A DNA stretch of 48,985 bases from Dehalococcoidia bacterium (GTDB taxonomy: Bacteria; Chloroflexota; Dehalococcoidia; Dehalococcoidales; G020351185), in contig CP070729.1 in the NCBI GenBank assembly GCA_020351185.1, positions 1,314,077 to 1,363,061 on the forward strand, read 5' to 3'. Positions 11,400 to 48,985 of the stretch are shown piece by piece; the first letter of the stretch is position 1, and each line of letters begins with the position of its first letter. The notes beneath the pieces are model-generated. The model saw only the letters and a program-made list of their open reading frames with translations, made no database searches and was not told the DNA's origin. The position numbers and the translations under genes are program-made.

Positions 11400-12016
11400 T
11401 ATTTCCTCCAATTATTTTTTATAATCTGCTGCCGTGTATAGACGAGTCGCTGCCCAAAAGTAAACAGACTAAATATACCAATAATATATAATGAAATATC
11501 GAGCTGGTTGATAAGAAGACCAATCGCCAGAACGATAACTCTCTCTGGGCGGGTAAAAAGACCTACGGAACATTCAATCCCAGCAGCTTCTGCTCTTGAC
11601 TTTATATAACTAACCGAAAATGAGATCAGAAGAACAGAACCGGTAAGCAAAATACCGATTACGGAGCCTTCGTTCGCATAAAAATACAGAATACCCAACA
11701 AGATGAATCCTTCAGCTAACCGATCTATGGTAGAGTCAAGTATGGCACCAAAATGTGTAATACGGTTTGTGTGCCTAGCAAGTGCGCCGTCAAGCATATC
11801 AAGGAAGCCTGCAACAAGAATCAAAATACCAGCGGCAAGAAAATTAGCAGTGACTAGTAGGGCTACTGATCCAGAGGCTAGCATTAGATTGAAGAGGGTA
11901 AGCGAATTTGGAGAAACTGGTGTTTTAGCCAATATTCTAACCACGGGATTGGTAAAATAGCAGGACATAGTTTTTCGAAAACGTGATAAACCTATCATAA
12001 AAATATTAACCTTCAA
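11399..12016 (-). CDS. CDP-alcohol phosphatidyltransferase (phosphatidylinositol-phosphate synthase-like)
   Basis: DMLDGALAR-x8-G-x3-D-x3-D signature in a multi-TM protein, clustered with an inositol-1-P synthase. Exact start uncertain. Confidence 0.75.
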   Translation of the reverse strand: MKVNIFMIGLSRFRKTMSCYFTNPVVRILAKTPVSPNSLTLFNLMLASGSVALLVTANFLAAGILILVAGFLDMLDGALARHTNRITHFGAILDSTIDRLAEGFILLGILYFYANEGSVIGILLTGSVLLISFSVSYIKSRAEAAGIECSVGLFTRPERVIVLAIGLLINQLDISLYIIGIFSLFTFGQRLVYTRQQIIKNNWRK

Positions 12017-12028
12017 TTTTGATGTAAA

Positions 12029-13201
12029 TCATACTGAGGACGGTATAGTATCATAATTATGAGAAACCTTTCGTTGTGGAGTCTGACCTTGTATCTGTTT
12101 ATAATAATTCACTACCTGTTGCGAGATCTCTGTCCAGTCATGTTTTTGAGCGGTTATGAAACCCTTAGCTCCCATTAGCTGTCTTAATTGTTTATCATCA
12201 ATAAGCTTTTTAAGCGCTTGTGATAATTCAATATCATTCTTAGGCGGAACTAAATATCCCTCCACTTCATTAGCCATAACACCAGCATAACCCTCTATAC
12301 TGGTTGCAACAACTGGTTTACCGAGTGCCATAGCTTCCAGAAGGACGATACCGAAGCTCTCTCTACCTGTAGCTGGTGTGCAGAATATATCAGCAGTTTT
12401 ATAATAACGTGGCAGTTCGTTATAATCCACCATACCTACAAAGACGACATCTGCTAGCTTATTGCGTCTAACATACCTTTCATATTTGCGACGAAAAATA
12501 ATACCGGGGCCGACAATGATAAGCCGACAATCTTTATATTCTCTTTTTATTCTATTGTAGGCTTTTAACAAGTAATCAAGTCCTTTGCGTTTTTCAAGGC
12601 GACCAACAAAAAGAATGTTTATTTTATTGTCAGCGAATTCTTCAATTGGCGCGATGTCCTGTGAGAAGTGTTTCATATTGATACCATTGGGAATAATCGT
12701 AAATGGCCCTCGAATATGCTTAATTGCATAGTCCGCAGCTGATTTTGAAACGGCAATTTTCCCTGCTAATTTATTTTGTCGGCGATCCAACATAAACTTG
12801 GAAATAGGCCAACCAAATTTATAACCAGGACTACCATGGCAAGCATGGAACGTGCCTATATTTACCGAATCCGAAAAGCGAAGTACGGCGCTACAGAGCA
12901 TTGGCATAAAAGGCTCGTGAAGGTGTATTATATCGAATTTTTCTCTTGATAGTACTTCTTTTATTTCAGATGCTAATCTCAAAGAAAAGCTAATACGAAT
13001 TGTAGTACCGCGGACAGGGAACGGTCGAGCCTTACCGATGTGAAGAAAGTTTTTATCTTCGTCTACTACGGACCGAGATGCTGGAGCGATTATCTTAACG
13101 TTATGCCCCATCTCGACGAGTTGATCATAGAGAGCTAGTATATGGTTGACTACACCTCCTGGGTGGACAAAGTCATAAGGAGAAACTAATCCGATCTTCA
13201 T
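12029..13201 (-). CDS. GT4-family glycosyltransferase (PimA-like)
   Basis: GT-B fold with the C-terminal E-x7-E region (ESFGIVLLEAMALGKPVV). Confidence 0.75.
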   Translation of the reverse strand: MKIGLVSPYDFVHPGGVVNHILALYDQLVEMGHNVKIIAPASRSVVDEDKNFLHIGKARPFPVRGTTIRISFSLRLASEIKEVLSREKFDIIHLHEPFMPMLCSAVLRFSDSVNIGTFHACHGSPGYKFGWPISKFMLDRRQNKLAGKIAVSKSAADYAIKHIRGPFTIIPNGINMKHFSQDIAPIEEFADNKINILFVGRLEKRKGLDYLLKAYNRIKREYKDCRLIIVGPGIIFRRKYERYVRRNKLADVVFVGMVDYNELPRYYKTADIFCTPATGRESFGIVLLEAMALGKPVVATSIEGYAGVMANEVEGYLVPPKNDIELSQALKKLIDDKQLRQLMGAKGFITAQKHDWTEISQQVVNYYKQIQGQTPQRKVSHNYDTIPSSV

Positions 13202-13249
13202 AAGAAAACGCTTTATATTCTGTAAATTATTTAAGCATTAATCATAAGG

Positions 13250-14362
13250 CTAGTATTTTTTATGTGTAGCCTTGGTTACCAGTTGAGATCCTTGTTGATC
13301 TGCGATGAAATCCTCGACCATACGACGGGCTTCGTTATCTGTATACTGAATTGGGGGAGACTTCATAAAATAGGAAGAAGGCGCCAATAGAGCTCCTTTT
13401 AATCCTCTATCTAGGGCTAGTTTGCAACATCGTATAGCATCAATAACGACACCGGCTGAGTTAGGGCTGTCCCAAACTTCAAGTTTCAATTCTAAATTCA
13501 GCGGAACATCACCGAAGGTACGTCCCTCCATTCGAATATGGCAGAATTTACGATCGGTGAGCCAAGGGACATAATCACTAGGGCCGATATGGATATCATC
13601 TGGATCCAATTTGTAATCAAGTTGAGAGGTTACTGAATTGGTCTTTGAGATTTTTTTAGATTCAAGGCGTTCTCGCTCCAGCATGTTTAGAAAGTCGGTA
13701 TTGCCACCGAAATTAAGTTGGTAAGTCTTCTCTACCTTGACACCGCGATCTCGGAATAGGCGAGTAAGCACCCTATGGACTATAGTTGCTCCGACTTGTG
13801 ATTTAATATCATCGCCAATTACAGGAAGTTTCTTTTTTTCAAAACGTTGCTGCCAGTATTTTTCTCGAGCTATGAATACAGGAACGCAGTTTATAAAACC
13901 ACAGCCAGCCTCTAGTATTTGTTCTACATACCACTTTGTGGCTTCTTCGCTCCCTACCGGGAGATAACTTATGACAACATCTGTCTTAGTATCCTTCAGT
14001 ATTTTCACGATATCGGCAGTTGGGCCTGGTGCTTTTTCAATTATTGTAGAAAGGTATTTACCAAGACCATCGTGGGTCATGCCCCGTTCCACTTTTATGC
14101 CACTGGGTGGTATATCACAGAAATTAAAGGTGTTGTTCGGTGAAGTAATAATTGCTTTAGCTAGATCTTGACCGACTTTATTCTTATCAATATCAAAGGC
14201 TGCAACAAAGTTGATATCACTTATATGGTAACCACCTAAATTTACATGCATTAACCCTGGAACGAATTCAACATCTTTGGTTTTTTTATAGAAATTAACA
14301 CCTTGCACCAGTGAAGAACAACAGTTGCCGATTCCTATTAAAGCTACATTTATACTACTCAA
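13250..14362 (-). CDS. myo-inositol-1-phosphate synthase
   Basis: About 370 aa prokaryotic MIPS pattern: N-terminal [12 protein letters not shown] Rossmann motif, SQVGATI and LNFGGNTDF motifs. Confidence 0.8.
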
Positions 14363-27391: not shown

Positions 27392-28879
27392 TTAGGTAGT
27401 ACGGTTGGCAAACAAAGAAACCGGAACAAGACGTTTTGGTGACTTGATACTATAATCTTCTATCAAAATAGCAGCCAGAATTATGATATCGAAATAAAAG
27501 AAATAGGGCCACAGGCTACGCCAAGCAAAAAATAACGGCAATACAGCCAGAAGTGGTCCTACATGTGGATAACGATTGCAATTATGATAGTACCATATTA
27601 TTGCTGTGATTCCGATAAGTAATTCCAAAATTGTGAAAAATAAAGGTGACTCAATGATTAAAACACCCCCAGTAACTAGAGTAATGATACCCACTCCCAA
27701 TGGGAAAAGATCATCAAATACTGGAGCCATTACTGATGTAAACCAAAGTAGAGGATCAATTATGATAAAAGGTAAATTGAACGCCAAGAATATAACAGCG
27801 ACAATAAATACAACTAACAGCGTCTTTTTCAAATCCATTATTCTAAAGATAAGTATCAGGTAATAAGGTATAAAGAACCAAGCTACCTGTTTGGTGGCTA
27901 TAGCTATACCCATAAATAGGGCAGATAACCACAGTTGCCTCTTTATGAGTATCCAAGCTAAGAGTAAAAATGGAAAGATAAGCGAACCTGTCTCGCCTGC
28001 GGCTATGCCAAACCATATTTCAAGACTGATTGAAACTGCACTAATGAAAAGAATTTTTTTATCCTTAGGGACTTTCCAGGCAACGTATGCCAGTATCGGA
28101 AGTACAAATATAAGAAGTACAATCCTGAAATCATCAATACCCAAAAGGAAAAAAATTGATGGTAAAATAAAACAACCAGCTGGATAATTGAGTTTGGATT
28201 CTAATTCCGGCGGTATTTGTTGTGGATTTTGTGACACTCTCTGCCATAATTGTTCCAATTGCGCATCGCTGGGATAAGGAAATATATCAGCAAACTCACC
28301 TTCCCGCAGAGGAGTTACCTGATCATATGAATTATCGTACAATATAGTAGCAGTAACTATATTTGGCATGGCATATGGATTATTACCATCTATTAAATTT
28401 TCGATAGCCTGGTGGCAAAGAGCTGTGCCATCATTATACGAGAGCACGCCTTCAAAAGAAGCCATCAATTCATTAGACTTCTTATTGGAGTCTTCGGCTG
28501 GAAACACTCCCACTCCAAATGAGGTTAATGTTATCAATAATCCCAACCCGGCAATAATAAATAGTGTTGAAATTACAATGGCACTCGGTTTTAGCCAATG
28601 TACCTGATTCTGTAGAAACTTGTCAGTCCTTGGCATTGCTATTAAAAAAAGAAGGATGAACCAGATAAGCCAAATAAAGGTACCGGTTACCATCATAGGG
28701 GTATCTTTCCAAACAAAACCTATACCTCCTAACAACGAGGCAACGAGTTTTACAAATATTGCAATGAAAAATAATAGTATTCTGGGTGTAGACTGTGTAT
28801 GGAAAAAGGCACGCATCTTTGAATGAAGATGTGAACAAATACGTGCTTTCTTTCCGGTGCCTTTTAGTTGTTCCATCAA
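27392..28879 (-). CDS. large polytopic membrane protein, possibly a GT-C-type (DUF2029/GT87-like) glycosyltransferase
   Basis: About 12 hydrophobic segments and one large soluble loop. The function call is a weak guess. Start uncertain. Confidence 0.4.
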   Translation of the reverse strand: MMEQLKGTGKKARICSHLHSKMRAFFHTQSTPRILLFFIAIFVKLVASLLGGIGFVWKDTPMMVTGTFIWLIWFILLFLIAMPRTDKFLQNQVHWLKPSAIVISTLFIIAGLGLLITLTSFGVGVFPAEDSNKKSNELMASFEGVLSYNDGTALCHQAIENLIDGNNPYAMPNIVTATILYDNSYDQVTPLREGEFADIFPYPSDAQLEQLWQRVSQNPQQIPPELESKLNYPAGCFILPSIFFLLGIDDFRIVLLIFVLPILAYVAWKVPKDKKILFISAVSISLEIWFGIAAGETGSLIFPFLLLAWILIKRQLWLSALFMGIAIATKQVAWFFIPYYLILIFRIMDLKKTLLVVFIVAVIFLAFNLPFIIIDPLLWFTSVMAPVFDDLFPLGVGIITLVTGGVLIIESPLFFTILELLIGITAIIWYYHNCNRYPHVGPLLAVLPLFFAWRSLWPYFFYFDIIILAAILIEDYSIKSPKRLVPVSLFANRTT

Positions 28880-31026: not shown

Positions 31027-32970
31027 ATGGCCGAAAAAAACACTAGTAAAACCGACGCAAAAAATGTTGGACCACCGCCAAAAATACTAACGAAGCCATT
31101 GCCCATAATACTTGACGAAATGGAGGCTAACATAAAAGCAGCAGCTGAGGCAGCTAGAAGAGCTGAAAATGCTGCTATTAAAGCTAATGACGCAGCTAGA
31201 TCAGCTACGAAGGCCTCCAGCGAAGCTGAAAAAAGGGCAGAGGAAGCACGTAAAGCTGGTGAAACGGCAGCCCATAAGGCTACAGCAGCTGCTGCTAATG
31301 CTGCTGCAAAAGCCGAAAAAATAGCCCAAGCAGCGATAGCATCAGCTGAAAAAGCTGCTGCTGAAGCCGAAAAGGCAGATCGCGAAGCTCGAGAAGCAAG
31401 TCGAGAAGCTATAGAAGCGTCGGAGGCAGCTTCAAAATCAGCTGAAGAAGCTGCTCAGAAAGCCGAGGATGCGGCTATAAAAGCCGAGGATACAGCAAGA
31501 ACAGCAAAATCAGCCGCTGAAGAAGCTACCATAAAAGCTGAGGAAGCAAGTCGGGAAGCCATAGAAGCATCGGAATCAGCTTCAAGATCAGCCGATAATG
31601 CTGCACAAAGAGCCGAGGATGCGGCTATGAAAGCCGAGGATACAGCAAGAGCGGCAAAATACGCTGCTGAAGAAGCCACAGTGAAAGCTGAAGAGGTTGA
31701 GCTAGCAGCAAAAGAAACCGCAGCCGCCGCCTTAAAAGCAGCTGAAGATGCCGCCTTAAGGGCTGAAAACGCAGCCATTGCTGCAAAAGAGGCTGTAGAA
31801 CTCTCAATAGAAGCTGCCTCAACCGCAGGTAAGCATGCTGATGAAAGTACAAAATCAGCAAAAGCTGCGGGAGCAGAAGCTACCTCAACTTTAACAGTAG
31901 AATCTGCAAAAAAAGCCGATGAAAGTGGTAGGGAAGCCAAGAAAGCAGCCGCAACTGCCTTTCGTCTAGCCGAAGAAACAGCTAGAAAAGGTGAACTTGC
32001 CGATATAGCTGGTGATGAAGCCATTGATGCGGCTACTAGAGTTTCAGGGATCCTATCGGAAAGAATTGACGAAGCCGGTCAAGATGCAAAAACATCTGCA
32101 ATAAAAGCTGCTCGTATTTCAGATGAAATAACCAAGAAAGCCGAGCTAGCTGATATGGCAGGTGATGAAGCTCTAGCCGCGGCTGTTAAATCGATTGCCG
32201 AGCAGGCTGCTGGAAGAGCCACCGAAGCTGCTAAAATTTCAAAAGATGCAGCTGTCAGTTCTATCGAAGCTGCCAGAGCAGCAGCTAAGTTAGCAGAAGA
32301 AAAAATGCAGGCGGCTAAAGCAGCTGCTGAAGAAGCTGCTAAAAGCATGACCGTTGAAGCAGCTAGGAAAGCAGACGAAGCTGGTAAAGAAGCAAAAAGG
32401 GCAGCGGCAGCAGCTACTCGGTTAGCTCAAGAAGCAGCCAGAAAAGGCGAAATGGCCGGTATTGCCGGCGAAGAAGCCCTTGAAGCGGCAGCTCAGGTAT
32501 CCGGTGAACCAGCCGATAAAGCTGGTAAGGTAGGCAAGGAAGCCAAAGAAGTAGCAGCCGAGGCAGCTAGAGTTGCCGAAGAGACGGCCAAAATTGCTGA
32601 ACAAGCAGATCTGATAGCCGATGAAGCTATTGCAGCTGCTATTTCAGCTGCAGGAGGGCAAGCTATCGCCAAGGCAGAAGAAGCTAAGAGAGCAGCACAA
32701 CAGGCTACCGCTAGAGCCGAAGAAGTTGCTCGGGTAAGGGCTGAGGAAGCCAAAAAGGCAGCTCAGGAAGCAGCATCCAGAGCGGAAGAACTCGCTAAAG
32801 CAGCCCAAGAAGCTGCTGATATCGCTTTAGCCAAAGCTGAAGAAGCATTAGTAAAGAAGATAGTCAGGAAACTTACCCAATCAGAGTGGGTTGTATACGG
32901 AGCAATCATAATCCTAGCTATAATATTCGGTGCTGTCTTTCTTGCCGTAGCAATTGCTGGAGGTATTTAA
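31027..32970 (+). CDS. Ala/Glu/Lys-rich repetitive helical protein with C-terminal transmembrane tail anchor (647 aa)
   Basis: AAGGAGG lies 6 nt upstream of the ATG. There is no N-terminal signal peptide. About 600 aa of low-complexity A/E/K repeats end in WVVYGAIIILAIIFGAVFLAVAIAGGI. Confidence 0.7.
   Translation: MAEKNTSKTDAKNVGPPPKILTKPLPIILDEMEANIKAAAEAARRAENAAIKANDAARSATKASSEAEKRAEEARKAGETAAHKATAAAANAAAKAEKIAQAAIASAEKAAAEAEKADREAREASREAIEASEAASKSAEEAAQKAEDAAIKAEDTARTAKSAAEEATIKAEEASREAIEASESASRSADNAAQRAEDAAMKAEDTARAAKYAAEEATVKAEEVELAAKETAAAALKAAEDAALRAENAAIAAKEAVELSIEAASTAGKHADESTKSAKAAGAEATSTLTVESAKKADESGREAKKAAATAFRLAEETARKGELADIAGDEAIDAATRVSGILSERIDEAGQDAKTSAIKAARISDEITKKAELADMAGDEALAAAVKSIAEQAAGRATEAAKISKDAAVSSIEAARAAAKLAEEKMQAAKAAAEEAAKSMTVEAARKADEAGKEAKRAAAAATRLAQEAARKGEMAGIAGEEALEAAAQVSGEPADKAGKVGKEAKEVAAEAARVAEETAKIAEQADLIADEAIAAAISAAGGQAIAKAEEAKRAAQQATARAEEVARVRAEEAKKAAQEAASRAEELAKAAQEAADIALAKAEEALVKKIVRKLTQSEWVVYGAIIILAIIFGAVFLAVAIAGGI
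31393..31692 (+). repeat. 2 x 150-bp in-frame tandem repeat inside the Ala-rich gene
   Basis: Copy 1 starts at 31393 and copy 2 at 31543, both beginning gaagcaagtcg.gaagc.atagaagc. About 85% identity by eye. Each encodes a 50-aa unit, EASREAIEASE.AS.SA...AEDAA.KAEDTAR.AK.AAEEAT.KAE. Confidence 0.85.
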
Positions 32971-36249: not shown

Positions 36250-37662
36250 TTGGCATCCAGTAAAGAGCGGATTTACGCTAAAGCTGTACGCCGCGCAATA
36301 ACTGCGGTTATCTCTGAATTAAATCTCAATGAAACATTAGCCGTTATTGTCAGGAGCACTGCCAGATCAATGAAAGCCGGCGCATCGTTGGTATTGCTTG
36401 ATGCTAACGGCAAAAAGTTGATGCACAGTATTACTTGGGGATTACCTCGTTTCTACATCCAAAAGGGCATACCAGATGCTCACCGAAGCCTCTCCGAAGT
36501 AGTTTGTGGAAAGACAATTATTATAGAAGATGTTTCACATGACAGCCGGATACAGTATCACCGCATGGCAATAAATGCTGGGATTGTATCCATCATCGGT
36601 ACTCCCATAATTATTGATGGATTACCTATAGGAAGTATCCGTGTTTATACGAAACAGCCCTGTGAGTGCAGCAAGCAGGATATCGGTTTTATTGAAACGA
36701 TCGCCAGTTTAATCGCAATAGCCTTTAAAGTGCACCTTCCAATTAAAGAAAAAAACCAAATAAAGAAAATAAAGCATGTACAACCGGTTACTTTTGCACA
36801 TCCCAGCGAAAAAGAGTTTGCCCGCATACTCGATTTCTATAACATGGAGTGGGTTTATGAACCGCGTTCTTTTCCGCTTAAATGGAATGGTGATAGAGTA
36901 ACCGAAATGTTTACTCCCGATTTTTATTTGCCAGGTCTTGATCTATACGTGGAAATAACGACACTAAAACAGAGCCTAGTTACAAATAAAAACCGTAAAC
37001 TTAGAAAGCTCAGAGAGATGTACCCAGATATTAATATAAACCTACTATACAAAAACGACTATAACCACTTACTAGCAAAGTACGGTGTTGGTCCGCTTTC
37101 ACAAACTAGAGCCCGCGGTATCAAGCGAATATTGTACTCAGCTGATGATATAAAAAGCCGAGTGATTGAACTAGCCGAAAAAATTTCAAAGGATTATAAA
37201 GATCGCCATCCGATTCTTGTGGGAATACAGCGAGGATTTATCTGCTTTATGGCCGACCTTATACGACAAATAACGGTTCCCCTTGATCTCGATTTTATTG
37301 CAATATCATACTACACTGGTGACGGTGATTCAGTGGTAAAAATTACTAAGGATATGGATTTGAAAATAGCTGGTCGGGATGTAATTGTAGTGGAAGACAT
37401 AGTCGATACTGGTATAACTTTGAATTATATCCTTAACCATCTAAAAACAAAAAAACCAACTAGCTTGGCAATATGTACTCTACTAGATAGGCAAATACGA
37501 CGGATTGTTAAACTACCAATCGATTATACAGGTTTCGAATTACCGGATGAGTTTGTGGTGGGTTATGGCCTAGATTACAAAGAGGAGTATAGAAATCTTC
37601 CTTTTATTGCTATACCCGATATAAAAAAGCCACAGCTAAAGAAAAACCACAATCCCCCGTAG
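36250..37662 (+). CDS. three-module fusion: N-terminal GAF-like domain, central PD-(D/E)xK-like domain, C-terminal hypoxanthine phosphoribosyltransferase
   Basis: The C-terminal ~175 aa align to Hpt, including the PRPP loop VIVVEDIVDTGITL and DEFVVGYGLDY. Residues ~20-160 resemble a GAF domain. Residues ~180-285 carry EFA..L...W.YEP...FTPDFYLP...LYVEIT. Confidence 0.75.
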   Translation: MASSKERIYAKAVRRAITAVISELNLNETLAVIVRSTARSMKAGASLVLLDANGKKLMHSITWGLPRFYIQKGIPDAHRSLSEVVCGKTIIIEDVSHDSRIQYHRMAINAGIVSIIGTPIIIDGLPIGSIRVYTKQPCECSKQDIGFIETIASLIAIAFKVHLPIKEKNQIKKIKHVQPVTFAHPSEKEFARILDFYNMEWVYEPRSFPLKWNGDRVTEMFTPDFYLPGLDLYVEITTLKQSLVTNKNRKLRKLREMYPDININLLYKNDYNHLLAKYGVGPLSQTRARGIKRILYSADDIKSRVIELAEKISKDYKDRHPILVGIQRGFICFMADLIRQITVPLDLDFIAISYYTGDGDSVVKITKDMDLKIAGRDVIVVEDIVDTGITLNYILNHLKTKKPTSLAICTLLDRQIRRIVKLPIDYTGFELPDEFVVGYGLDYKEEYRNLPFIAIPDIKKPQLKKNHNPP

Positions 37663-39267: not shown

Positions 39268-39642
39268 ATGTCGAATAATCGAATTATAGATATTCATCAA
39301 CTTACTGAAATATTCAAAGCTCTTTCCAATACCAACCGTCTTAGAATCTTCATGCGTTTAACCTATTGTGCTGGACAAATACAGAATACTAAATCAGACG
39401 ATCAGATTTGTGAATGTGTTGGCACATTAGGCAACGACCTAGCAATTGCACCATCCACCATTTCTCATCACTTAAAGGAGCTTAGCCATTCAGGGCTTAT
39501 CACGATGACTAGACGGGGTCAGAATGTTGAATGTCAAGTAAATCCTGAGGCATTAAATTTATTAAATACTTTTTTTAACGAAGCTTGCGCCACATCAATT
39601 ACTATACAAAATGATCATGTTCCGGGCCAATTACAGGCCTGA
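39268..39642 (+). CDS. arsR: ArsR/SmtB-family metalloregulator
   Basis: Winged-helix HTH (PSTISHHLKELSHSGLI) preceded by CEC at the position of the ArsR CVC As(III) site. Confidence 0.8.
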   Translation: MSNNRIIDIHQLTEIFKALSNTNRLRIFMRLTYCAGQIQNTKSDDQICECVGTLGNDLAIAPSTISHHLKELSHSGLITMTRRGQNVECQVNPEALNLLNTFFNEACATSITIQNDHVPGQLQA

Positions 39643-39654
39643 AGGAGAGTGTAA

Positions 39655-39954
39655 ATGAATAAAAAGATAACTATCTATGAACCAACACTATGTTGTGACA
39701 GTGGTGTCTGCGGACCCAACCCTGACCAAGCGCTGATAACATTACAAGATACTATAGATAAAGCAAAGGAAAAGGGAATCGAAACTGAACGTTTTACCAT
39801 TACTTCACACCCAAAAAAATTCCAAGAAAATCCTGAGGTAATAAAACTGTTACAGGAAAAAAAGTTGAATGCCCTGCCCATTACTGCTTTTGAAGGACAG
39901 ATTATAAAAGCAGGCAGCTACCCAACTCTTGATGAATTAATCCGATATTTTTAA
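39655..39954 (+). CDS. arsD: arsenic metallochaperone ArsD (short form)
   Basis: IYEPTLCCDSGVCGP matches the ArsD Cys12-Cys13-Cys18 motif. Thioredoxin-like length and adjacent to arsA. Confidence 0.85.
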   Translation: MNKKITIYEPTLCCDSGVCGPNPDQALITLQDTIDKAKEKGIETERFTITSHPKKFQENPEVIKLLQEKKLNALPITAFEGQIIKAGSYPTLDELIRYF

Positions 39955-39997
39955 TTGACAATGGCAATATTTAGGAAATAAGTCGTTATAATTTTAG

Positions 39998-41878
39998 ATG
40001 GGAAAAAGCTTAAAAACTAGATTTTATTTCTTTTCCGGCAAGGGTGGAGTCGGTAAAACAACAATGGCTTGTGCAAGTGCTATCTACCTTGCCGCCCTTG
40101 GGGAAAAAACTCTTATCATTACGACCGATCCGGCATCCAATCTAGCCGATGTTTTCGAACAGAACATAGGGAACGAGATAACTACAATCAATACAACTAC
40201 TAATCTTTTTGCTCTTGAGCTGGATCCCGATAAAGCCACCGAAGAGTATAAGCAACGGACTATTGCACCACTACAAGGTATAGTTCCCCCTGAAAGTCTT
40301 GAAGTCATTGAGGAACAGTTAAACTCTCCATGCACAGCAGAAGTAGCTGCTTTTGAACGTTTTACCGATTTTCTACAGGACCCTGAATTCGATACTGTTA
40401 TCTTTGATACTGCCCCAACCGGTCACACGCTGAGACTAATTCAATTACCTGTTGAATGGAGCGGAGTTATTGAAGAAGCCGCTAGGAGCGGCACAGGTGG
40501 TCAAACCTGTGTTGGTCCAGCAGCATCACTAGCTGAATCGAAACTAAAATTTGACCGTGCCATCGAAGCTATGCGTAATCCCGATGAAGCAACCTTTATC
40601 TTTGTTTTACGCCCAGAAGCTACATCTATTTATGAAACGAATAACTCAATCACCGAACTTTCCAAACTGGGAATAAGGTCACAAGAATTAATTGTCAATG
40701 GCATTTATCCACAGAATATTTGTGATAGCCCGTTTATGAAAGGTCGTTATTCGCGTCAACAACAATTCTTGCAAACCATAAAAGATGACTTCTCTTTACC
40801 TACCACTTTAGTAGAACTAAAACCTAGCGAGGTAAAAGGGGTTGCAGCGCTATATGAAGTGGCAGAAGCGATTTTTAAAAAACCGATGAGTATGGATAAC
40901 TATTCACCGATTATATTAGAAAACATTCAAGTAACCTCCATACAAAATTATCCGTCCACAGACTTAGCCATAAACCAACTGTTAACACCTATTAACGGAA
41001 GAAGAACAATATTCTTTGCCGGCAAGGGCGGGGTCGGTAAAACCTCTGTTGCCGCAGCAACTAGTCTCTGGATAGCAAAACAAGGATACCGGACAATATT
41101 AATTACTACTGATCCAGCATCTCATTTAGCTCAGGTCTTCGAGCAAAATATATCCGACAAACCTACCCTCATAGAGGGTGAACAACACTTATGGATATCG
41201 CATATTGATCCGTCGAAGGCTGCACAGCAGTACAAAGAAAAAGTCTTGGCTGAAATACAACAGAAATACGATGAAAAAAGAGTTCTTGCCGTCGAGGAGG
41301 AGCTAAATTCGCCTTGCACCGAGGAGATGGCAACTTTTGAGAAATTCATAGAATTCGCTACCCTAAAGGATTACGAGGTTATGATCTTTGATACAGCACC
41401 AACAGGCCACACCCTTCGCCTGTTAAATTTACCAGTTGAATGGAATAGACAACTGGAAATAAAGATTTTTACAACCGTGGAGTCCAATGCAGATAAGATT
41501 ACCAAATCCCGCTTTCTTGAAGTTATCAACATGATGCAAGACCCAGAACAAACCACATTCAGTTTTGTTATGTATCCAGAAAAGACCCCAATCGAAGAAG
41601 CCAGCCGGGCAATGAGTGAATTATCAGAAATTGACATAAAAACCTCACTCGTTGTCGCTAACATGATATTACCTAATACAATAATAACAAATGATTACTG
41701 GCGACAGCGTCAGGCTATGCAAAAAGAATATCTAAAAGAAATGAAAAATAGATTCAAAGCACCCATTATACAACTGCCGCTTCTTGATGAAGATCTTATG
41801 GGTAAAGATAAATTAGTGCAGGCTGGAATGTTGCTTTATGGTATAAAAAACCCGGTAGCAGAAGGAGTAAAGAAATGA
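39998..41878 (+). CDS. arsA: arsenite-stimulated ATPase ArsA (two homologous halves)
   Basis: GKGGVGKT occurs twice and DTAPTGHTLRL twice. Equivalents of the R773 ArsA metalloid cysteines are present: NSPCTAEVAAF, GGQTCVGP, NSPCTEEMATF. Confidence 0.92.
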   Translation: MGKSLKTRFYFFSGKGGVGKTTMACASAIYLAALGEKTLIITTDPASNLADVFEQNIGNEITTINTTTNLFALELDPDKATEEYKQRTIAPLQGIVPPESLEVIEEQLNSPCTAEVAAFERFTDFLQDPEFDTVIFDTAPTGHTLRLIQLPVEWSGVIEEAARSGTGGQTCVGPAASLAESKLKFDRAIEAMRNPDEATFIFVLRPEATSIYETNNSITELSKLGIRSQELIVNGIYPQNICDSPFMKGRYSRQQQFLQTIKDDFSLPTTLVELKPSEVKGVAALYEVAEAIFKKPMSMDNYSPIILENIQVTSIQNYPSTDLAINQLLTPINGRRTIFFAGKGGVGKTSVAAATSLWIAKQGYRTILITTDPASHLAQVFEQNISDKPTLIEGEQHLWISHIDPSKAAQQYKEKVLAEIQQKYDEKRVLAVEEELNSPCTEEMATFEKFIEFATLKDYEVMIFDTAPTGHTLRLLNLPVEWNRQLEIKIFTTVESNADKITKSRFLEVINMMQDPEQTTFSFVMYPEKTPIEEASRAMSELSEIDIKTSLVVANMILPNTIITNDYWRQRQAMQKEYLKEMKNRFKAPIIQLPLLDEDLMGKDKLVQAGMLLYGIKNPVAEGVKK

Positions 41879-42435
41879 ACCAACAAGACATATCCGATCC
41901 TGAAAAACAAAATGAAGAATTGATATCGTCTTCGGTTCTGGGCAAGTGGTTCCCACGGGGTAAGCGCTGGCGTACAATAATTTTCACTGTTACCCTAATT
42001 GCAGCTATCGCAATCGCTACAAATTCAATAATTAGGTATGAGAGCAGCAGGGTAGTAGATGCACAACCGAATATCACGCCAACGATAACTACACCCCTAG
42101 AAGAAATCACTGCTCCCCAGTTTATTGAGGATCGCCAAGAGGCATACCTTTCCGATAATAAGCTTGTGCTTGTCATAACACCAGTGAATGATGACGGCCT
42201 AAATGAGCCTGTTACTGATACTGTAATTGAAGCAGCAAATAATATTCAGGATACGGATAATATTCATGTAGGAGTATATACACTACCAAAGGATGAATAT
42301 GCCACAAGTCCCAGTGTTACGGTTAGAGTATTGCATCATGATCCAACTAAACCAGACCTCTCTTGGACAATCCGCGAAGATATAACCACATCTAGCATCT
42401 ACGAAACCTATCTCAACTTTGTATTTATTCAATAG
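41875..42435 (+). CDS. hypothetical N-terminally membrane-anchored, cysteine-free protein (186 aa)
   Basis: Its start overlaps the arsA stop (ATGA). One TM helix (IIFTVTLIAAIAIATNSII) followed by a ~125-aa extracytoplasmic domain. Confidence 0.5.
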   Translation: MNQQDISDPEKQNEELISSSVLGKWFPRGKRWRTIIFTVTLIAAIAIATNSIIRYESSRVVDAQPNITPTITTPLEEITAPQFIEDRQEAYLSDNKLVLVITPVNDDGLNEPVTDTVIEAANNIQDTDNIHVGVYTLPKDEYATSPSVTVRVLHHDPTKPDLSWTIREDITTSSIYETYLNFVFIQ

Positions 42436-42443
42436 ACAAAGGA

Positions 42444-43181
42444 GTGGTAATAATGGAAGATTGGATAATGGAAATTCTCAAAGGTGACCAGTTTGGTCTG
42501 CTAGCATTTCTTGCTGCTTTTTTGTTCGGGATATCCAGCGCTTTCACTACTGCAGCCTGTGGTGGTATCCCCGCAATGTTGGTTATCGTCGGTTATACTG
42601 GTGCCAGTAAGGGTGGACGTCGACAATTATTTATTACGGCAGCTGCCTTCACAATAGCTTCAGTTACTGCACTAATGCTTCTTGGAGCGCTAATGAGTTA
42701 CTTCGGCGGGGCTATGCAGGATCTAACCGGCAGGTTAGGTTTTTATGCCTTGAAAGCAGTTGGTCTTATAGCCATATTTATCGGTTTTTTGGCACTCGAC
42801 ATTTTACCCTTTCGAGTCCCGGAATTCAAGCTAGCGCCGGAGAAGGTGCCAAGTGGTATTTTAGGTGCTTCTGTAATCGGACTTACCGCCGGCCTGGCAT
42901 CGGCCGGTTGCGCCGCTACTTGCTCACCTATACAACTCCCAGTCGTACTAGGGCTAGCAACACTTAGAGGTGAAATGTTGCAAGGTGCTTTCATACTCGG
43001 TTTATTTGCACTGGGATATACCTTCCCAATTGTGGCTATTATGCTTGGTGTAGGCATGGGTAAAGCTTCGAGAATTATGGCTAAAATTGACAAACCGCTT
43101 CGAATTATATCGGGAATCTTCCTTATTGGCGTCGGCTTTTATCTGATATCAATAATGAGTTTATCTATAAAGATTAATTAG
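42444..43181 (+). CDS. CcdA/DsbD-superfamily (DsbD_2-like) thiol-disulfide electron-transport membrane protein
   Basis: About 6 TM segments with one Cys-containing motif in each half (TAACGGIP and ATCSPIQLP). The ATG at 42453 with AAGGAG upstream is the likelier start. Confidence 0.65.
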   Translation: MVIMEDWIMEILKGDQFGLLAFLAAFLFGISSAFTTAACGGIPAMLVIVGYTGASKGGRRQLFITAAAFTIASVTALMLLGALMSYFGGAMQDLTGRLGFYALKAVGLIAIFIGFLALDILPFRVPEFKLAPEKVPSGILGASVIGLTAGLASAGCAATCSPIQLPVVLGLATLRGEMLQGAFILGLFALGYTFPIVAIMLGVGMGKASRIMAKIDKPLRIISGIFLIGVGFYLISIMSLSIKIN

Positions 43182-43205
43182 TAAAATTTATCGAGTCATA
43201 GATAC

Positions 43206-43958
43206 ATGTATCATAAGTCAGAAAAGAAAACAGCTGCGAGAAAGAGTAGACAAAAACAACTTCAATCTATAACCAGACGTCATTTCTTAAAAGAAGCCAG
43301 TATTATAGTAGGTGGAATAGCTTTAACCTCAGTACCATTAACATCAGCTTGTAGTGATTCTGGACACATTTCTACCTCGAATAATACAAATAATACTCCA
43401 ATTAGTACACTTACAGGCGAAAACACATCGACTAAAACAACAACTAAAGATACTTCAATTACATCAGTAAATACCGAAATTTACACTCCCAACGTGACAT
43501 GGAATGGTGAATATATTCCTCCTAATGAGGACCCCGAGGTGGAGCCAATACCTGGTTGCACTACGTTTGTAGCCGTGGACCGACTCTATGCTATAGAGCA
43601 CATGTGGATTAAGCCAATTGCTGAAGGTATTGTAGTTATTGGGATTACTGAGAAATTTCTTGAATTCCTAGAAGATGTATTTTTAATATCACTTCAAGAC
43701 GTTAGTACTACCATTACGCGTAATTCATACCTTGGGGATATAGAAGCAAAAAAAATGAACGTTGAAATGGTAGCTCCAGTCAGCGGAGTGATACTGCAAA
43801 ATAATGATAAAATTTTAGATGATCCAGATTGGGTCGAGAAAAGACCATATGTTAGTGGCTGGTTTCAGGTAATACAACTAAGCAATCCCAACGAGCTAAA
43901 TGAACTCCTTACAGCTGAAAAGTATATATCATATCAAGCCAAAGTTGTTGTCGAATAA
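43206..43958 (+). CDS. Tat-signal, possibly lipid-anchored, GcvH-like (lipoyl-carrier fold) exported protein
   Basis: TRRHFLK twin-arginine motif, h-region ending LTSAC, an S/T/N-rich linker, then a ~125-aa domain that aligns without gaps to the window's own gcvH, including the lipoyl Lys (K183, 43752-43754). Confidence 0.7.
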   Translation: MYHKSEKKTAARKSRQKQLQSITRRHFLKEASIIVGGIALTSVPLTSACSDSGHISTSNNTNNTPISTLTGENTSTKTTTKDTSITSVNTEIYTPNVTWNGEYIPPNEDPEVEPIPGCTTFVAVDRLYAIEHMWIKPIAEGIVVIGITEKFLEFLEDVFLISLQDVSTTITRNSYLGDIEAKKMNVEMVAPVSGVILQNNDKILDDPDWVEKRPYVSGWFQVIQLSNPNELNELLTAEKYISYQAKVVVE

Positions 43959-47135: not shown

Positions 47136-47942
47136 ATGAATAATACGAATATTCAGGTTTGTATTCGAGGAGCTGGCGAGCTTGCTACCGCAGTGGCTCA
47201 TAAACTTCATAAATGTAACTTTCGGGTGTTCCTAACCGAGATTGCTAACCCTAAGGCAGTAAGAAGAAAAGTTGCATTTTGCGAAGCTGTACACCTTGGT
47301 TCTATAGAAGTCGAGGGTGTTACCGCTGAACTGGTAGTAACTACTAATGAAATTAATGCTGTTTGGCAAAGAGGTAATATTCCCCTTATTATTGGCCCGA
47401 AGATTTCAATAATAGGTAATGCAAAAGTAGATGTATTCATTGACGCTATTATGGCAAAAAAGAATACTGGTGTTTATAAGAATCTAGCTCCCTTAGTCAT
47501 CGGTCTAGGTCCCGGGTTTTCTGCTGGAAGGGATGTAGATGTGGTTATAGAGACTAAGAGGGGGCATGATTTGGGTCGAATCATTCTTGAAGGAGAAGCC
47601 GAGCCTAATACCGGTATTCCCGGTGTCATCGGTGGTTATTCAAAGGAGCGTGTTTTTCGAGCACCTCAAGAAGGCACATTTAAGAATGTTAAAGACATTG
47701 GTGATATAGTAGAGGCTGGTGAGACGTTAGCCATAGTTGACGGGATCCCCGTTAAAGCTGAAATTAGCGGTGTGATCCGAGGTATGTTAGCTAATGGAAC
47801 TAATGTTCACGTAGGTATGAAGGCTGGAGATATAGACCCGCGTGGCATAAAGAGGTATTGCTATACTATCTCAGATAAAGGACGTACTATCGCTGGTGGC
47901 GTGGTAGAAGCCATCCTTTCATGGAATAAATTATATGAATAA
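47136..47942 (+). CDS. YqeB-family protein (selenium-dependent molybdenum hydroxylase system accessory protein-like)
   Basis: From memory of the TIGR03309-type N-terminus: IRGAGELATAVAHKLHKCNFRVFLTEI..P.AVRRKVAFCEAV...VEGVTA. AAGGAG lies upstream. Confidence 0.55.
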   Translation: MNNTNIQVCIRGAGELATAVAHKLHKCNFRVFLTEIANPKAVRRKVAFCEAVHLGSIEVEGVTAELVVTTNEINAVWQRGNIPLIIGPKISIIGNAKVDVFIDAIMAKKNTGVYKNLAPLVIGLGPGFSAGRDVDVVIETKRGHDLGRIILEGEAEPNTGIPGVIGGYSKERVFRAPQEGTFKNVKDIGDIVEAGETLAIVDGIPVKAEISGVIRGMLANGTNVHVGMKAGDIDPRGIKRYCYTISDKGRTIAGGVVEAILSWNKLYE

Positions 47943-48549
47943 TATTTTATTCGATAACAATCTTGAGTATATCAAAAGTATTAATCGATTATGGGTGGAT
48001 GTATATCCTTTTCTGGTTGATGCAATAATAGAAAAATATAGAAGAAACAGTGGAAGAGTGCTTGAAATCGGCCCTTTCTCTGGGGGTATAACTGTGGAAT
48101 TAGCTAGACGATACTCAAAGATGCAATTTAGTATCTACACTTGGCAAAAAGATGTCAAGGATTACATAAAGGAAGAGATCGATAAAGCCAAATTAAAAGA
48201 GAGAGTAAAGATATATATCGGCCCTAGTAAAACGTTTGAAATTTATAATAATTGTTTTGATTTAATAATTTCCCGAGGTGCCTTATTCTTTTTGGACAGT
48301 AATCTCTTTAAAGAAACTTACAGGATCATGTGCCCAGGGGGATTGGGTTATATTGGAGGAGGCTACGGTTATAAAACTCCTCAAGCATTGATTGATAAAA
48401 TACATGCTGAATCTCATTGGCTTAACCAGCAATTGGGGAAAAATTGGGTATCTAAGGATTGGCTTGAAAACCTTTTACTAGATGTTCAATTGTCAAATAG
48501 ATGTCATATCGAAGAAAAGGGTGGTCTATGGGTAATACTCCGCAAATAG
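47935..48549 (+). CDS. class I SAM-dependent methyltransferase-like protein
   Basis: VLEIGPFSGGITVELA (motif I) and DLIISRGALFF (motif II-like). Overlaps the YqeB-like gene by 8 nt. Confidence 0.55.
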   Translation: MNNILFDNNLEYIKSINRLWVDVYPFLVDAIIEKYRRNSGRVLEIGPFSGGITVELARRYSKMQFSIYTWQKDVKDYIKEEIDKAKLKERVKIYIGPSKTFEIYNNCFDLIISRGALFFLDSNLFKETYRIMCPGGLGYIGGGYGYKTPQALIDKIHAESHWLNQQLGKNWVSKDWLENLLLDVQLSNRCHIEEKGGLWVILRK

Positions 48550-48591: not shown

Positions 48592-48936
48592 CTAGCCTAA
48601 AAGTTTTTCAAGAATTGCCTTATTGGCACCAAAATATACTTTCTCTCCTATGCGGATCACAGGTCTGCGTATGAATCGTGGTTCTTGCAACATTAATTTG
48701 ATCAGTTCTTTATTGTTCAACTTATCCTGTTTTAATCCCAATTTCTTTAAGCTAGGGCTTTTAAAATTAAACATCTTAGAAGCTGATTCGCCCTTTAATA
48801 GTTCCTCTATTTCATCCTTATCGAATGGGTATTTAAAAAAATCACGCTCATTTATTTTCACATTTTGTTGCGAAAGAAACTCTTTCGCTTTACGACATGT
48901 GTTTCATCTTACCCAGCAATAGAAGTCAACTTTCAT
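48592..48936 (-). CDS. ArsC/Spx-family thioredoxin-fold protein, probable selenoprotein (UxxC; in-frame TGA at 48904-48906)
   Basis: The ATG at 48936 gives MKVDFYCWVR-U-NTCRKAKEFLSQQNVKINERDFF..., continuous with the 89-aa track ORF. U aligns with the first Cys of the Spx CxxC. A hairpin lies downstream. Confidence 0.7.
48870..48888 (-). promoter_or_regulatory. putative bacterial SECIS hairpin
   Basis: On the minus strand: GCGAAAG-AGTTT-CTTTCGC, a 7-bp stem with GU in the loop, starting 15 nt after the in-frame TGA. Confidence 0.5.
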
Positions 48937-48985
48937 TTATGATATTTTCTCTTTCATAAATAAATTGTCACCAACTAAAAAATAA

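Follow-up and report, generated by a model that had tools for sequence, protein, structure and literature searches.

An in-frame TGA predicted to encode selenocysteine in an ArsC/Spx-superfamily gene of a Dehalococcoidia bacterium

The minus strand between positions 48936 and 48592 of the window (the whole stretch of 48,985 nucleotides analyzed here) very probably encodes a 114-residue ArsC/Spx selenoprotein, likely an oxidoreductase, in which the UGA at codon 11 would be decoded as selenocysteine (Sec) by means of a downstream hairpin. From comparison of sequences, we give this reading a probability of about 0.9. Translation would start at the ATG and the ribosome would meet the UGA at the eleventh codon. 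An 8-bp hairpin with a GUU loop, located 15 nt further inside the coding sequence, would act as a bacterial SECIS and recruit SelB.GTP.Sec-tRNA(Sec), Sec being inserted instead of termination, as the conservation of the element suggests. In the product, U11 would occupy the N-terminal end of helix alpha1, i.e. the site of the attacking Cys in CxxC thioredoxin-fold proteins, and C14, one helical turn later, would probably serve as the resolving residue through formation of a selenenylsulfide; C7 would adjoin this site from the end of strand beta1. Judging from the fold and the motif only, the most likely role of the product is that of a selenol/thiol oxidoreductase. The features discussed below are collected in Table 1.

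Table 1. Features of the predicted selenoprotein gene and of its surroundings in the window
Feature	Position	Strand	Evidence or remark
ArsR-like HTH gene, ArsA, weak ArsG-like permease	39268-43181
yqeB, selenium-dependent molybdenum cofactor maturation	47136..47942	+	TIGR03309, E 1e-102, 343 bits (cut-off 220)
SAM-dependent methyltransferase-like gene	47935..48549	+	Pfam Methyltransf_25/11; overlaps the end of yqeB
Full-length selenoprotein CDS (predicted)	48592..48936	-	114 codons + TAG; Pfam PF03960; same architecture in orthologues
89-aa GTG-start ORF	48592..48861	-	Mechanical ORF list; public 89-aa equivalents
SECIS-type hairpin within the CDS (predicted)	48870..48888	-	Fold, covariation, synonymous constraint, bSECIS criteria
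Cys14 codon TGT, second position of UxxC, predicted resolving cysteine	48895..48897	-
In-frame TGA, predicted Sec codon, residue 11, first position of UxxC	48904..48906	-
Cys7 codon TGC, third conserved redox residue, end of strand beta1	48916..48918	-
ATG start codon	48934..48936	-	TAA in frame just before
Weak sigma-70-like promoter match GTGACA-16-GAAAAT	48944..48971	-	Ends 8 nt before the ATG; doubtful significance

The gene and the conservation of its TGA codon

An earlier note on this DNA had pointed out that the ORF track shows only an 89-aa GTG-start fragment and that an upstream ATG opens a 114-aa frame interrupted by a single TGA. The ORF list indeed contains just the shorter frame, and translation confirmed the longer one: it reads MKVDFYCWVR*NTCRKAKEFLSQQNVKINERDFF..., with the TGA as the one internal stop and a terminal TAG, which gives a product MKVDFYCWVRUNTCRKAKEFL...EKLLG whose UxxC motif is U11-N-T-C14. 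Since a TAA directly precedes the ATG, an N-terminus located further upstream is impossible. In 63% of the orthologues an ATG stands at the corresponding place (-10 codons), the rest beginning a few codons earlier (e.g. MAxK...). The promoter scan upstream of the ATG gave one sigma-70-like site for 2.5 expected in shuffled sequences, i.e. chance level.

When U is written as C, the protein matches the Pfam ArsC family PF03960 (E 1.7e-16, 60.7 bits, cut-off 24), and the 114-residue product is predicted to be a thioredoxin-fold protein of the ArsC/Spx superfamily with a C7-x3-U11-x2-C14 site. The AlphaFold model of a Cys form that is 68% identical to the window protein (P0009) has a pLDDT of 93.9, with residues 2-7 forming beta1 and residues 12-23 alpha1, and superimposes on the structures of Spx, ArsC and YffB (1Z3E, 1I9D and 1RW1) with TM scores of 0.83-0.84. 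According to this model, the N-terminal extension would be structurally required. The 89-aa GTG-start ORF, which lacks beta1 and alpha1, is a truncation artefact.

Orthologous loci were obtained from two unbiased collection scans, which provided 80 GTDB species loci and 80 metagenome loci originating from Dehalococcoidia, Syntrophales/Smithella and sediment metagenomes. A TGA is located at exactly the codon-11 position in 158 of these 160 loci (78/80 GTDB species loci and 80/80 metagenome loci) and a TGC in the two others, so that the tally with the window included is 159 TGA and 2 TGC among 161 orthologous genes. Five further genuine Cys forms were found via protein matches, bringing the TGC/TGT orthologues to seven in all; homologues at this position therefore carry Cys or Sec.

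The 30 nt upstream of the TGA also evolve as coding sequence: these ten codons are conserved as protein, F, C and W being 97-100% conserved, and synonymous choice is free in them (TTT/TTC, GAT/GAC, AAA/AAG). The in-frame coding sequence is kept on both sides of the TGA (FYCWxKUxTCRKAKEFL). Cys7 is present in 80/80 GTDB loci when these are listed with the ERDFF motif as the sole anchor, and its position is occupied by Trp in a more distant subgroup. Cys14 is found in 143/143 Sec forms, for which the collecting pattern itself required a Cys at this place, and is also invariant in alignment A3. In the more distant subgroup (L169-171), the Sec codon position likewise carries TGA, and the stem, though different, is complementary (GUAAGAG/CUCUUAC).

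The SECIS-type hairpin, the Sec machinery and other readings of the TGA

The hairpin that the earlier note had placed 15 nt after the TGA, at the distance of a SECIS, was found there, as GCGAAAG(A)-GUU-(U)CUUUCGC; together with the TGA it recurs in about 160 orthologues. Its stem comprises 8 bp (GCGAAAGA/UCUUUCGC) and its apical loop, located at 48880-48878 and 23 nt from the UGA, can be read as a 3-nt GUU or as A-GUU-U fitting the N1-G-[G/U]-N-N2 pattern. The MFE is -8.6 (19 nt) to -10.1 kcal/mol, and the folding energy of a 61-nt stretch is -14.7 kcal/mol (z = -3.9), none of 200 shuffles folding as well. The bSECIS model specifies a loop of 3-9 nt with a G in its first two positions, an upper stem of 4-16 bp, a distance of 16-37 nt from the UGA and an MFE <= -7.5 kcal/mol (PMC13188914); the GUU loop, the 8 bp, the 23-nt spacing and the MFE of the hairpin fall within all four criteria. 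As in the E. coli fdhF-type SECIS and the bSECISearch consensus, the stem-loop lies inside the ORF directly after the UGA, its apical loop is small with G then U first, and its spacing is within the 16-37 nt range. Unlike the fdhF SECIS, to which its sequence is unrelated, it has neither the conserved lower helix nor the bulged U.

Across 81 sequences, 95.5% of the stem cells are paired, with compensatory changes at 21:35 and 23:33; the latter pair is AU in 44 sequences, GC in 33 and GU in 4, and is unpaired in none. On a tree of 143 sequences, each side of 23:33 underwent about 14-15 independent changes and only one sequence is left unpaired. Synonymous sites of the stem and loop are frozen, whereas codon usage is roughly even elsewhere in the gene: Glu+8, the third base of whose codon is the loop G, is GAG in 142/142 sequences, Ser+11 is UCG in 102/106 and Ala+6 is only GCG or GCA. 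Furthermore, the median local dG is -5.6 kcal/mol in Cys forms vs -9.8 kcal/mol in Sec forms (p = 5e-4), and the full stem is found in 2/7 Cys forms vs 106/143 Sec forms (p = 0.019). Part of the stem conservation is at the protein level since the stem also encodes the conserved peptide AKEFLS. From these comparisons, the hairpin appears to be under RNA-level selection and to behave as a SECIS. It does not open any new mechanism but would show clearly how a SECIS can overlie a conserved peptide and measurably constrain codon choice at the RNA level.

An outer helix that appears in the MFE fold of the window sequence (nt 5-10/44-49 after the UGA) has 69% of its cells paired and no consistent covariation; it is therefore not part of the element, and the inner helix alone is supported. 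The Rfam scan gave no family at gathering thresholds and no match spanning the whole gene. The best weak match on the element was NmsRb (48774-48855, 17 bits, gathering threshold 52), and the matches at E <= 10, including potC on the opposite strand (24 bits), were at chance level. As no bacterial SECIS family was matched, this result says little.

Within the 49-kb window, ARAGORN and NCBIfam scans of 30 ORFs detected none of selA, selB, selC and selD: ARAGORN found tRNA-Thr only, the matches to the SelB model are IF-2 and EF-Tu, and the NCBIfam scans showed housekeeping genes. Likewise, tblastn of 1.58 Mb of loci with approximate E. coli SelD and SelA queries gave no match. As signs of selenium use by the organism and its relatives, the window contains yqeB, two Smithellaceae genomes (L046 and L071) have a tRNA-Sec at 7.7-8.8 kb from the orthologue, and Dehalococcoidia with 46-49 selenoproteins have been listed (PMC13326102). 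As to a second selenoprotein gene in the window, none of 33 in-frame-TGA candidates was convincing, the only large one (11399-13201) corresponding to two adjacent genes.

The absence of the Sec machinery from the window, together with the 89-aa form reported by ORF finders and public annotation, would be in line with a genuine stop, the locus being a pseudogene or a truncated gene from which only the ORF 48861-48592 is made. However, a nonsense mutation would not have become established at one and the same codon of about 160 orthologues belonging to two phyla, and the ten codons upstream would not have stayed in frame under purifying selection. The 89-aa product would, moreover, lack the entire redox motif, along with beta1 and alpha1, of the fold that was modelled at the high pLDDT given above, and we consider a genuine stop very improbable. 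Somewhat less so, but still improbable, is the reading of the TGA as a standard amino acid (Trp, Cys, Gly or Arg) through a reassigned code or SECIS-independent suppression, which would yield a full-length, selenium-free protein. Some gene callers did use TGA as Trp in orthologues: for instance, P0001 shows W at the Sec position and its DNA reads TGA. However, TGA terminates 4 of the 23 family-confirmed genes of the window, Trp is encoded by TGG 78 times, and the TGA at 48906-48904 is the sole one in frame among these 23 genes; there is no reassigned genetic code, TGA being a normal stop elsewhere in the window.

Besides, the site is the nucleophile position of CxxC and Cys orthologues exist, and the RNA-selected hairpin, which decays in Cys forms, fits a SelB-dependent model; tRNA-Sec is present in two genomes carrying an orthologue. 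The hairpin could also be viewed as an attenuator or translational coupler of the 89-aa ORF, with ATG...TGA as a 10-codon leader peptide, since regulatory regions are commonly built in this way, with a stable hairpin behind a short upstream ORF. This explanation is the least probable of all: the leader is in frame with what follows the TGA in every orthologue, the joined parts reproduce the ArsC/Spx beta1-alpha1 unit including the redox motif, the Cys forms read the same codons continuously and no terminator-like T-run follows the hairpin.

Relation to known proteins and selenoproteins

Read through as a selenoprotein, the product has Spx of Bacillus subtilis (PDB 1Z3E and 3GFK) as its closest solved relative in both sequence (E 2e-11 to 5e-11) and fold (TM 0.83-0.84). 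Spx is a redox-sensing regulator that binds RNA polymerase. HMMER aligns C/U11-N-T-C14-RKAKEFL of the window protein with C10-T-S-C13-RKARAWL of Spx, C-x-x-C-R-K-A being at the same place in both; U11 thus falls on Cys10 of Spx, and also on Cys12 of ArsC, in agreement with the previous proposal that the TGA corresponds to the first Cys of CxxC. Identity with Spx is about 26%, its Cys10 being replaced by Sec. Spx has 131 aa vs 114 aa for the window protein and the alignments end near Spx residue 110, so that the C-terminal extension of Spx appears to be absent. The Spx/MgsR models score below their cut-offs (TIGR01617, 70.7 vs 75.05; NF002459, 55.7 vs 123).

The fold also matches that of ArsC of plasmid R773 (PDB 1I9D, TM 0.83), which is a glutaredoxin-coupled arsenate reductase. 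In the alignment, U11 corresponds to the catalytic Cys12, R91 to Arg94 and C7 to His8. BLASTP puts Arg60 on Asn57, with a K/R two residues later (position 59), and the alignment stops before Arg107, which has no aligned counterpart. The model of glutaredoxin-coupled ArsC (TIGR00014) gives 41.9 bits, below its cut-off of 106. A canonical glutaredoxin-coupled arsenate reductase and an Spx transcription factor are both poor fits.

ArsC-like selenoproteins have already been reported, as the earlier note suggested (PMC1088965, PMC1794560, PMC2398784, PMC13188914). UxxC selenoproteins of the ArsC/Spx type entered the catalogues in 2005-2008, and neither the concept nor the class of protein nor its motif is new. 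For instance, the GOS survey of 2008 described 'Arsenate reductase 2' or 'Arsenate reductase-like protein' selenoproteins with a UxxC motif (cd03032 ArsC_Spx; PMC2398784). These proteins, or NF041106 'ArsC family (seleno)protein', belong to the same superfamily as the window protein, have Sec as the first residue of UxxC at the start of alpha1 and a SECIS immediately downstream and, like the window gene, were predicted by comparative genomics alone (PMC2398784, PMC13188914). However, the window subfamily differs from them by an additional conserved Cys7 (C-x3-U-x2-C), by its habitat (Dehalococcoidia and Syntrophales from anaerobic sediments vs marine plankton) and by its Sec content (158/160 in the near family of the window gene vs 42 Sec and 238 Cys homologues in the GOS family). 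The window protein reaches 43.9 bits with NF041106, below the cut-off of 85, and among three relatives scanned two have 30.9 and 32.2 bits and the third has no match at E <= 1e-6. In the Sargasso Sea/GOS 'Arsenate reductase (ArsC) 1' selenoprotein, Sec is at the position of the catalytic Cys12 of ArsC (PMC1088965); this TIGR00014-type protein shares the superfamily and the Sec position but has UxxS instead of UxxC.

Genomic neighborhood and annotation of the family

The earlier note had also drawn attention to a YqeB-like selenium marker 650 bp away and to an ars operon at about 4.6 kb. Both distances hold: a true yqeB, convergent with the ArsC-like gene and not sharing its operon, reaches to within 650 bp of the stop of the latter, and the GcvH-like gene that follows the ars-type genes ends at 43958, about 4.6 kb away. 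The suggested associations do not extend to the family: outside the window, the yqeB/methyltransferase neighborhood is found in its closest relative L002 (= L083) alone, and the conserved neighbor families of the other ~160 loci include no ars genes. A functional link to the yqeB or ars genes thus finds no support, this proximity not being conserved across the family. The methyltransferase-like and ArsC-like genes converge with a 42-nt tail-to-tail spacer, and the same arrangement is found in L002.

In many Dehalococcoidia, a gene of the Staygreen family (Mg-dechelatase-type) is located directly downstream on the same strand, and the ArsC-like gene itself often adjoins a heliorhodopsin gene. 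These neighbors, the near-obligate use of Sec (~99% of close orthologues) and the Cys-x3-Sec-x2-Cys triad suggest that the function could be unrelated to arsenic. We tentatively consider, as a possible though rather unlikely case, a separate and so far unmodelled ArsC/Spx selenoprotein subfamily with a function of this kind. If so, its members might be selenium-dependent redox partners involved in tetrapyrrole handling or in the response to light or oxidative stress.

The predicted gene adds to the ArsC/Spx superfamily a branch that uses Sec near-exclusively. The claim that standard pipelines mis-annotate it is borne out by UCE97746.1 (P0003), a 99% identical NCBI entry recorded as an 89-aa 'hypothetical protein'; KPK22972.1 (P0040) is another public equivalent of 89 aa. 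About 160 orthologues are wrongly deposited in public genomes and metagenomes, either as fragments of 87-102 aa or as full-length proteins in which Trp stands for Sec. A model dedicated to the subfamily and derived from the present alignment would correct many of these records, which NF041106 does not capture, and would enlarge the selenoproteomes of Dehalococcoidia and Syntrophales by one selenoprotein. The fragments are named 'hypothetical protein', 'ArsC/Spx/MgsR family protein' or 'arsenate reductase-like glutaredoxin family protein'.

Reading frame and conservation of the codon-11 TGA

On the minus strand (48985-48400), an ATG opens a frame of 114 codons (cataa ATG AAA GTT ... AGA TGA AAC ...) that translates as MKVDFYCWVR-stop-NTCRKAKEFLSQQNVKINERDFF...EKLLG-stop, its single internal stop being a TGA at codon 11. 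Since the triplet directly before the ATG is TAA, a longer N-terminus is impossible. The mechanical ORF list holds only an 89-aa GTG-start ORF in this region. With the stop written as Cys, the 114-aa protein matches Pfam ArsC (PF03960, E 1.7e-16) and, among proteins of solved structure, is nearest to Spx (E 2e-11 to 5e-11); the stop aligns with Cys10 of the Spx CxxC and is placed by BLASTP on catalytic Cys12 of ArsC R773. The extended frame and the hairpin behind it are therefore confirmed, and the coordinates and descriptions in the earlier note (ORF call, 114-codon frame, lone TGA, Cys alignment, hairpin) were all correct. Its reading of the TGA as selenocysteine (Sec) is supported by the conserved TGA, the existence of Cys forms and the properties of the hairpin, and we give it a probability of about nine in ten.

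The protein search returned 329 relatives. The stop column is C or W in the closest full-length ones; many others are fragments of 87-102 aa that start just past it, and one of these short proteins (P0030 from JGI, 89 aa) has the identical ATG...TGA extension upstream in its DNA. Scanning a single genome per GTDB species yielded 80 loci (by record titles, about 24 from Dehalococcoidia/Chloroflexi, about 54 from Syntrophales/Smithella/'Deltaproteobacteria' and two unclassified). Listed by the downstream ERDFF motif alone, 78 of the 80 carry the same in-frame stop in the context (M)KVDFYCWxKUxTCRKA[KR]EFL; it is always TGA, and the two exceptions have TGC. The metagenome scan added 80 loci, with TGA in 80/80, and protein hits led to five more genuine Cys forms (TGT/TGC). 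Hence homologues do carry Sec or Cys at codon 11 (seven Cys forms), a point on which the earlier note had made its claim depend. TGA also occupies this codon in a more distant GC-rich subgroup (P0051; contigs up to 4.1 Mb), within FYWWPR-TGA-SSCRKVRELL. A single Dehalococcoidia MAG (isolate W425) has TAG in place of the conserved Trp8 codon (FYC-TAG-VK-TGA), giving two in-frame stops three codons apart, perhaps through an assembly error or in a pseudogene.

The TGA could also mark a pseudogene or end a ten-codon leader peptide. The ten codons 5' of it are, however, kept as amino acids in 143 distinct Sec-form sequences (F 97%, C 100%, W 98%), although the pattern that collected these sequences demanded the Cys and an almost fixed Trp; the ERDFF-anchored listing, free of this bias, has the upstream Cys in 80/80 loci. 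Synonymous codons vary freely in the same 143 sequences (TTT 71 / TTC 68, GAT 62 / GAC 45, AAA 60 / AAG 51). Such a pattern marks translated sequence, a further point on which the earlier note had staked its claim, and it excludes both readings. A reassigned code in which TGA specifies an amino acid is likewise excluded: among 23 family-confirmed genes of the window, TGA terminates four, Trp is encoded 78 times by TGG, and the codon-11 TGA is the sole in-frame TGA.

Coordinates of the features discussed (window unless a locus is named)
Feature	Coordinates	Strand	Remarks
ArsC/Spx-like gene	48936-48592	-	114 codons
Internal TGA	48906-48904	-	codon 11
Listed ORF	48592-48861	-	89 aa, GTG start
Hairpin	48888-48870	-	candidate SECIS
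Promoter-like match	48944-48971	-	GTGACA-16-GAAAAT, 8 nt 5' of ATG
ars-type run	39268-43958	+	
ArsR-like HTH gene	39268-39642	+	ars-type run
ArsA	39998-41878	+	best model NF041417, 643 bits, below cut-off 800
ORF without family	41875-42435	+	186 aa, ars-type run
Membrane protein	42444-43181	+	weak ArsG-like hit only
GcvH-like protein	43206-43958	+	250 aa, N-terminal extension ~120 aa
ORF	27392-28879	-	495 aa
ORF	31027-32970	+	647 aa
ORF	36250-37662	+	470 aa
Inositol-3-phosphate synthase and adjoining GT4 glycosyltransferase	12029-14362	-	synthase: best model 'mycothiol_INO1', 519 bits, below cut-off 638
tRNA-Sec, L046	1126-1223	-	98 nt, anticodon TCA
tRNA-Sec, L071	2165-2262	-	identical to L046
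ArsC-like orthologue, L001	243-587		DNA of P0001
Trp8-to-TGA region, L017	~10016-10033		isolate W425
GCV_H-domain gene, L002	3633-4352		upstream of ArsC-like orthologue
Staygreen-family gene, L165	3353-3814		
Staygreen-family gene, L166	3121-3615		
Staygreen-family gene, L123	423-884		

The hairpin as a candidate SECIS

The stretch 3' of the TGA folds as GCGAAAGA-GUU-UCUUUCGC; its 61-nt context reaches -14.7 kcal/mol (z = -3.9), a stability matched by none of 200 shuffles. The hairpin lies within every limit of the bSECIS consensus model quoted in PMC13188914: an apical loop of GUU (3 nt) or A-GUU-U (3-9 nt required), an upper stem of 8 bp (4-16 bp), the required G within the first two loop positions, as a rule with G or U after it (here G then U), a UGA-to-loop spacing of 23 nt (16-37 nt) and an MFE of -8.6 (19 nt) to -10.1 kcal/mol (27 nt; -7.5 or below required). 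A-GUU-U is also an exact fit to the N1-G-[G/U]-N-N2 pattern. The outer helix of the window's own fold was rejected as part of the element, being not conserved across sequences.

Pairing, covariation and synonymous constraint are evidence of selection on this structure. In a set of 81 sequences, 95.5% of inner-helix cells are paired and the loop bases G27 and U28 never vary; the counts are GC 49 / AU 17 / GU 14 for pair 21:35 and AU 44 / GC 33 / GU 4 for pair 23:33, which is never unpaired. A neighbour-joining tree of 143 sequences, made from the remainder of the protein, implies about 14-15 changes on each side of pair 23:33, and the pair is kept in 142 of the 143. Because the stem overlaps the conserved peptide AKEFLS, we examined synonymous sites: Glu+8, whose third base is the loop G, is GAG in 142/142, Ser+11 is UCG in 102/106, Ala+6 is only GCG or GCA and Leu+10 only CUU or CUC, whereas at other positions of the gene codon use for these amino acids is near even (normalised synonymous entropy 0.51 in stem codons vs 0.86 elsewhere, p = 0.03). 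Furthermore, the hairpin is weaker in the seven distinct Cys forms than in Sec forms (median local dG -5.6 vs -9.8 kcal/mol, p = 5e-4), as expected if the structure is needed only with a UGA codon; the complete stem occurs in 2/7 Cys forms, a small sample in which two keep it, vs 106/143 Sec forms (p = 0.019). The distant subgroup has a different yet complementary stem (GUAAGAG/CUCUUAC) at the same place. The promoter-like match upstream of the ATG is no better than chance (1 found vs 2.5 expected); if real, it would make the mRNA leaderless or nearly so.

Protein family and public annotation

AlphaFold models a Cys form of 68% identity with pLDDT 93.9 and with beta1 at 2-7, alpha1 at 12-23 and beta2 at 27-32; residue 11 thus stands at the N-terminal end of helix alpha1, and both beta1 and alpha1 would be missing from the 89-aa fragment. 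Superposition of this model on Spx, ArsC R773 and YffB gives TM 0.83-0.84; therefore sequence models, not the fold, separate the subfamilies. The window protein stays below the curated cut-offs of TIGR01617 (Spx/MgsR-related; 70.7 bits, cut-off 75.05), NF002459 (Spx; 55.7, 123), TIGR00014 (ArsC; 41.9, 106) and NF041106 ('ArsC family (seleno)protein'; 43.9, 85). NF041106 gives 30.9 and 32.2 bits with two other family members and no match at E <= 1e-6 with a third. Unlike Spx, the protein has no C-terminal extension; in the alignment with ArsC R773, Arg94 is kept as R91, but Arg107 has no aligned counterpart and Arg60 no exact one. Cys7, which does not vary in the close family, is aligned with ArsC His8, an active-site residue. 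Together these features point to a selenol/thiol oxidoreductase with a C-x3-U-x2-C site rather than a canonical arsenate reductase or an Spx regulator. Elsewhere in the window, the inositol-3-phosphate synthase gene adjoins a GT4 glycosyltransferase gene with BshA/MshA-like hits. The pair may make an inositol-linked compound or a low-molecular-weight thiol, and such a product would bear on what reduces thioredoxin-fold proteins in the source organism.

ArsC-like selenoproteins have indeed been reported before, as the earlier note said: 14 Sargasso Sea sequences with a UxxS motif (PMC1088965), 'ArsC-like' proteins in Desulfotalea and Desulfuromonas genomes (PMC1794560) and, in the GOS survey, 'Arsenate reductase 2, cd03032, UxxC', with 42 Sec sequences vs 238 Cys homologues (PMC2398784), which a 2026 review equates with NF041106 (PMC13188914). 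The window gene shares the architecture and UxxC motif of the latter family, and its kind is therefore already known. It differs by its score under the NF041106 cut-off, by the extra Cys7, by its anaerobic Dehalococcoidia and Syntrophales hosts and by a family almost always in Sec form, and is arguably a distinct subfamily within this kind. The result is of real value for annotation and of only moderate scientific surprise.

The expected mis-annotation by standard pipelines is seen throughout the public records. Three entries are shortened: UCE97746.1 (an 89-aa 'hypothetical protein', 99% identical), KPK22972.1 (89 aa) and MDP7588962.1 ('ArsC/Spx/MgsR family protein', 96 aa). Several ENA and Logan calls place Trp at the Sec position; on short contigs these are P0001, P0002, P0004, P0007, P0010, P0013, P0022, P0026, P0027 and P0032. 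For instance, the W of P0001 is TGA in the DNA, the gene caller having used a TGA = Trp code. Such calls appear full-length yet conceal the recoding.

Sec machinery and genomic neighbourhood

The only tRNA gene in the window is tRNA-Thr, and selA, selB and selD were not found within its 49 kb. Two Smithellaceae/'Deltaproteobacteria' genomes carry identical tRNA-Sec genes 8.8 kb (L046) and 7.7 kb (L071) upstream of their ArsC-like orthologues. The window gene converges on a yqeB-methyltransferase pair (TIGR03309 hit for YqeB, E 1e-102), an arrangement that recurs only in the closest relative, L002; yqeB is a marker of a SelD-dependent trait. For Dehalococcoidia MAGs, counts of 46-49 selenoproteins have been published (PMC13326102). 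These tRNA-Sec genes, yqeB and the published counts lend indirect support to a putative Sec machinery in the source genome.

Neighbouring ORFs of 170 loci were grouped into clusters, and the main ones were assigned to Pfam families; heliorhodopsin and DegV were named from precomputed Pfam hits and reading of the sequence. A Staygreen-family gene (PF12638, E 1e-49) lies directly downstream on the same strand in 56 loci (between L003 and L167), mostly Dehalococcoidia and sediment metagenomes. A 177-aa membrane protein is encoded upstream in 47 loci, and heliorhodopsin (18), DegV-like (18), PNPOx-like (17) and DUF3783 genes (14, mostly Smithella) are found nearby. Glutaredoxin-type genes adjoining heliorhodopsins were noted in a published survey (PMC8612252). 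The earlier note had also pointed to nearby ars genes. Their position is as it stated, but the conserved neighbour families of the 170 loci include no ars genes, and the proximity is therefore probably coincidental.

Two long ORFs of the window, of 495 and 647 aa, match neither Pfam nor NCBIfam; long Ala/Ser-rich shadow ORFs opposite the 647-aa one suggest a compositionally biased coding sequence. In the 470-aa ORF, a hypoxanthine phosphoribosyltransferase (TIGR01203, E 9e-54) makes up the C-terminal 160 residues, and the N-terminal 290 gave no NCBIfam match at the chosen threshold; this ORF may be a TilS fusion or have a mis-set start.
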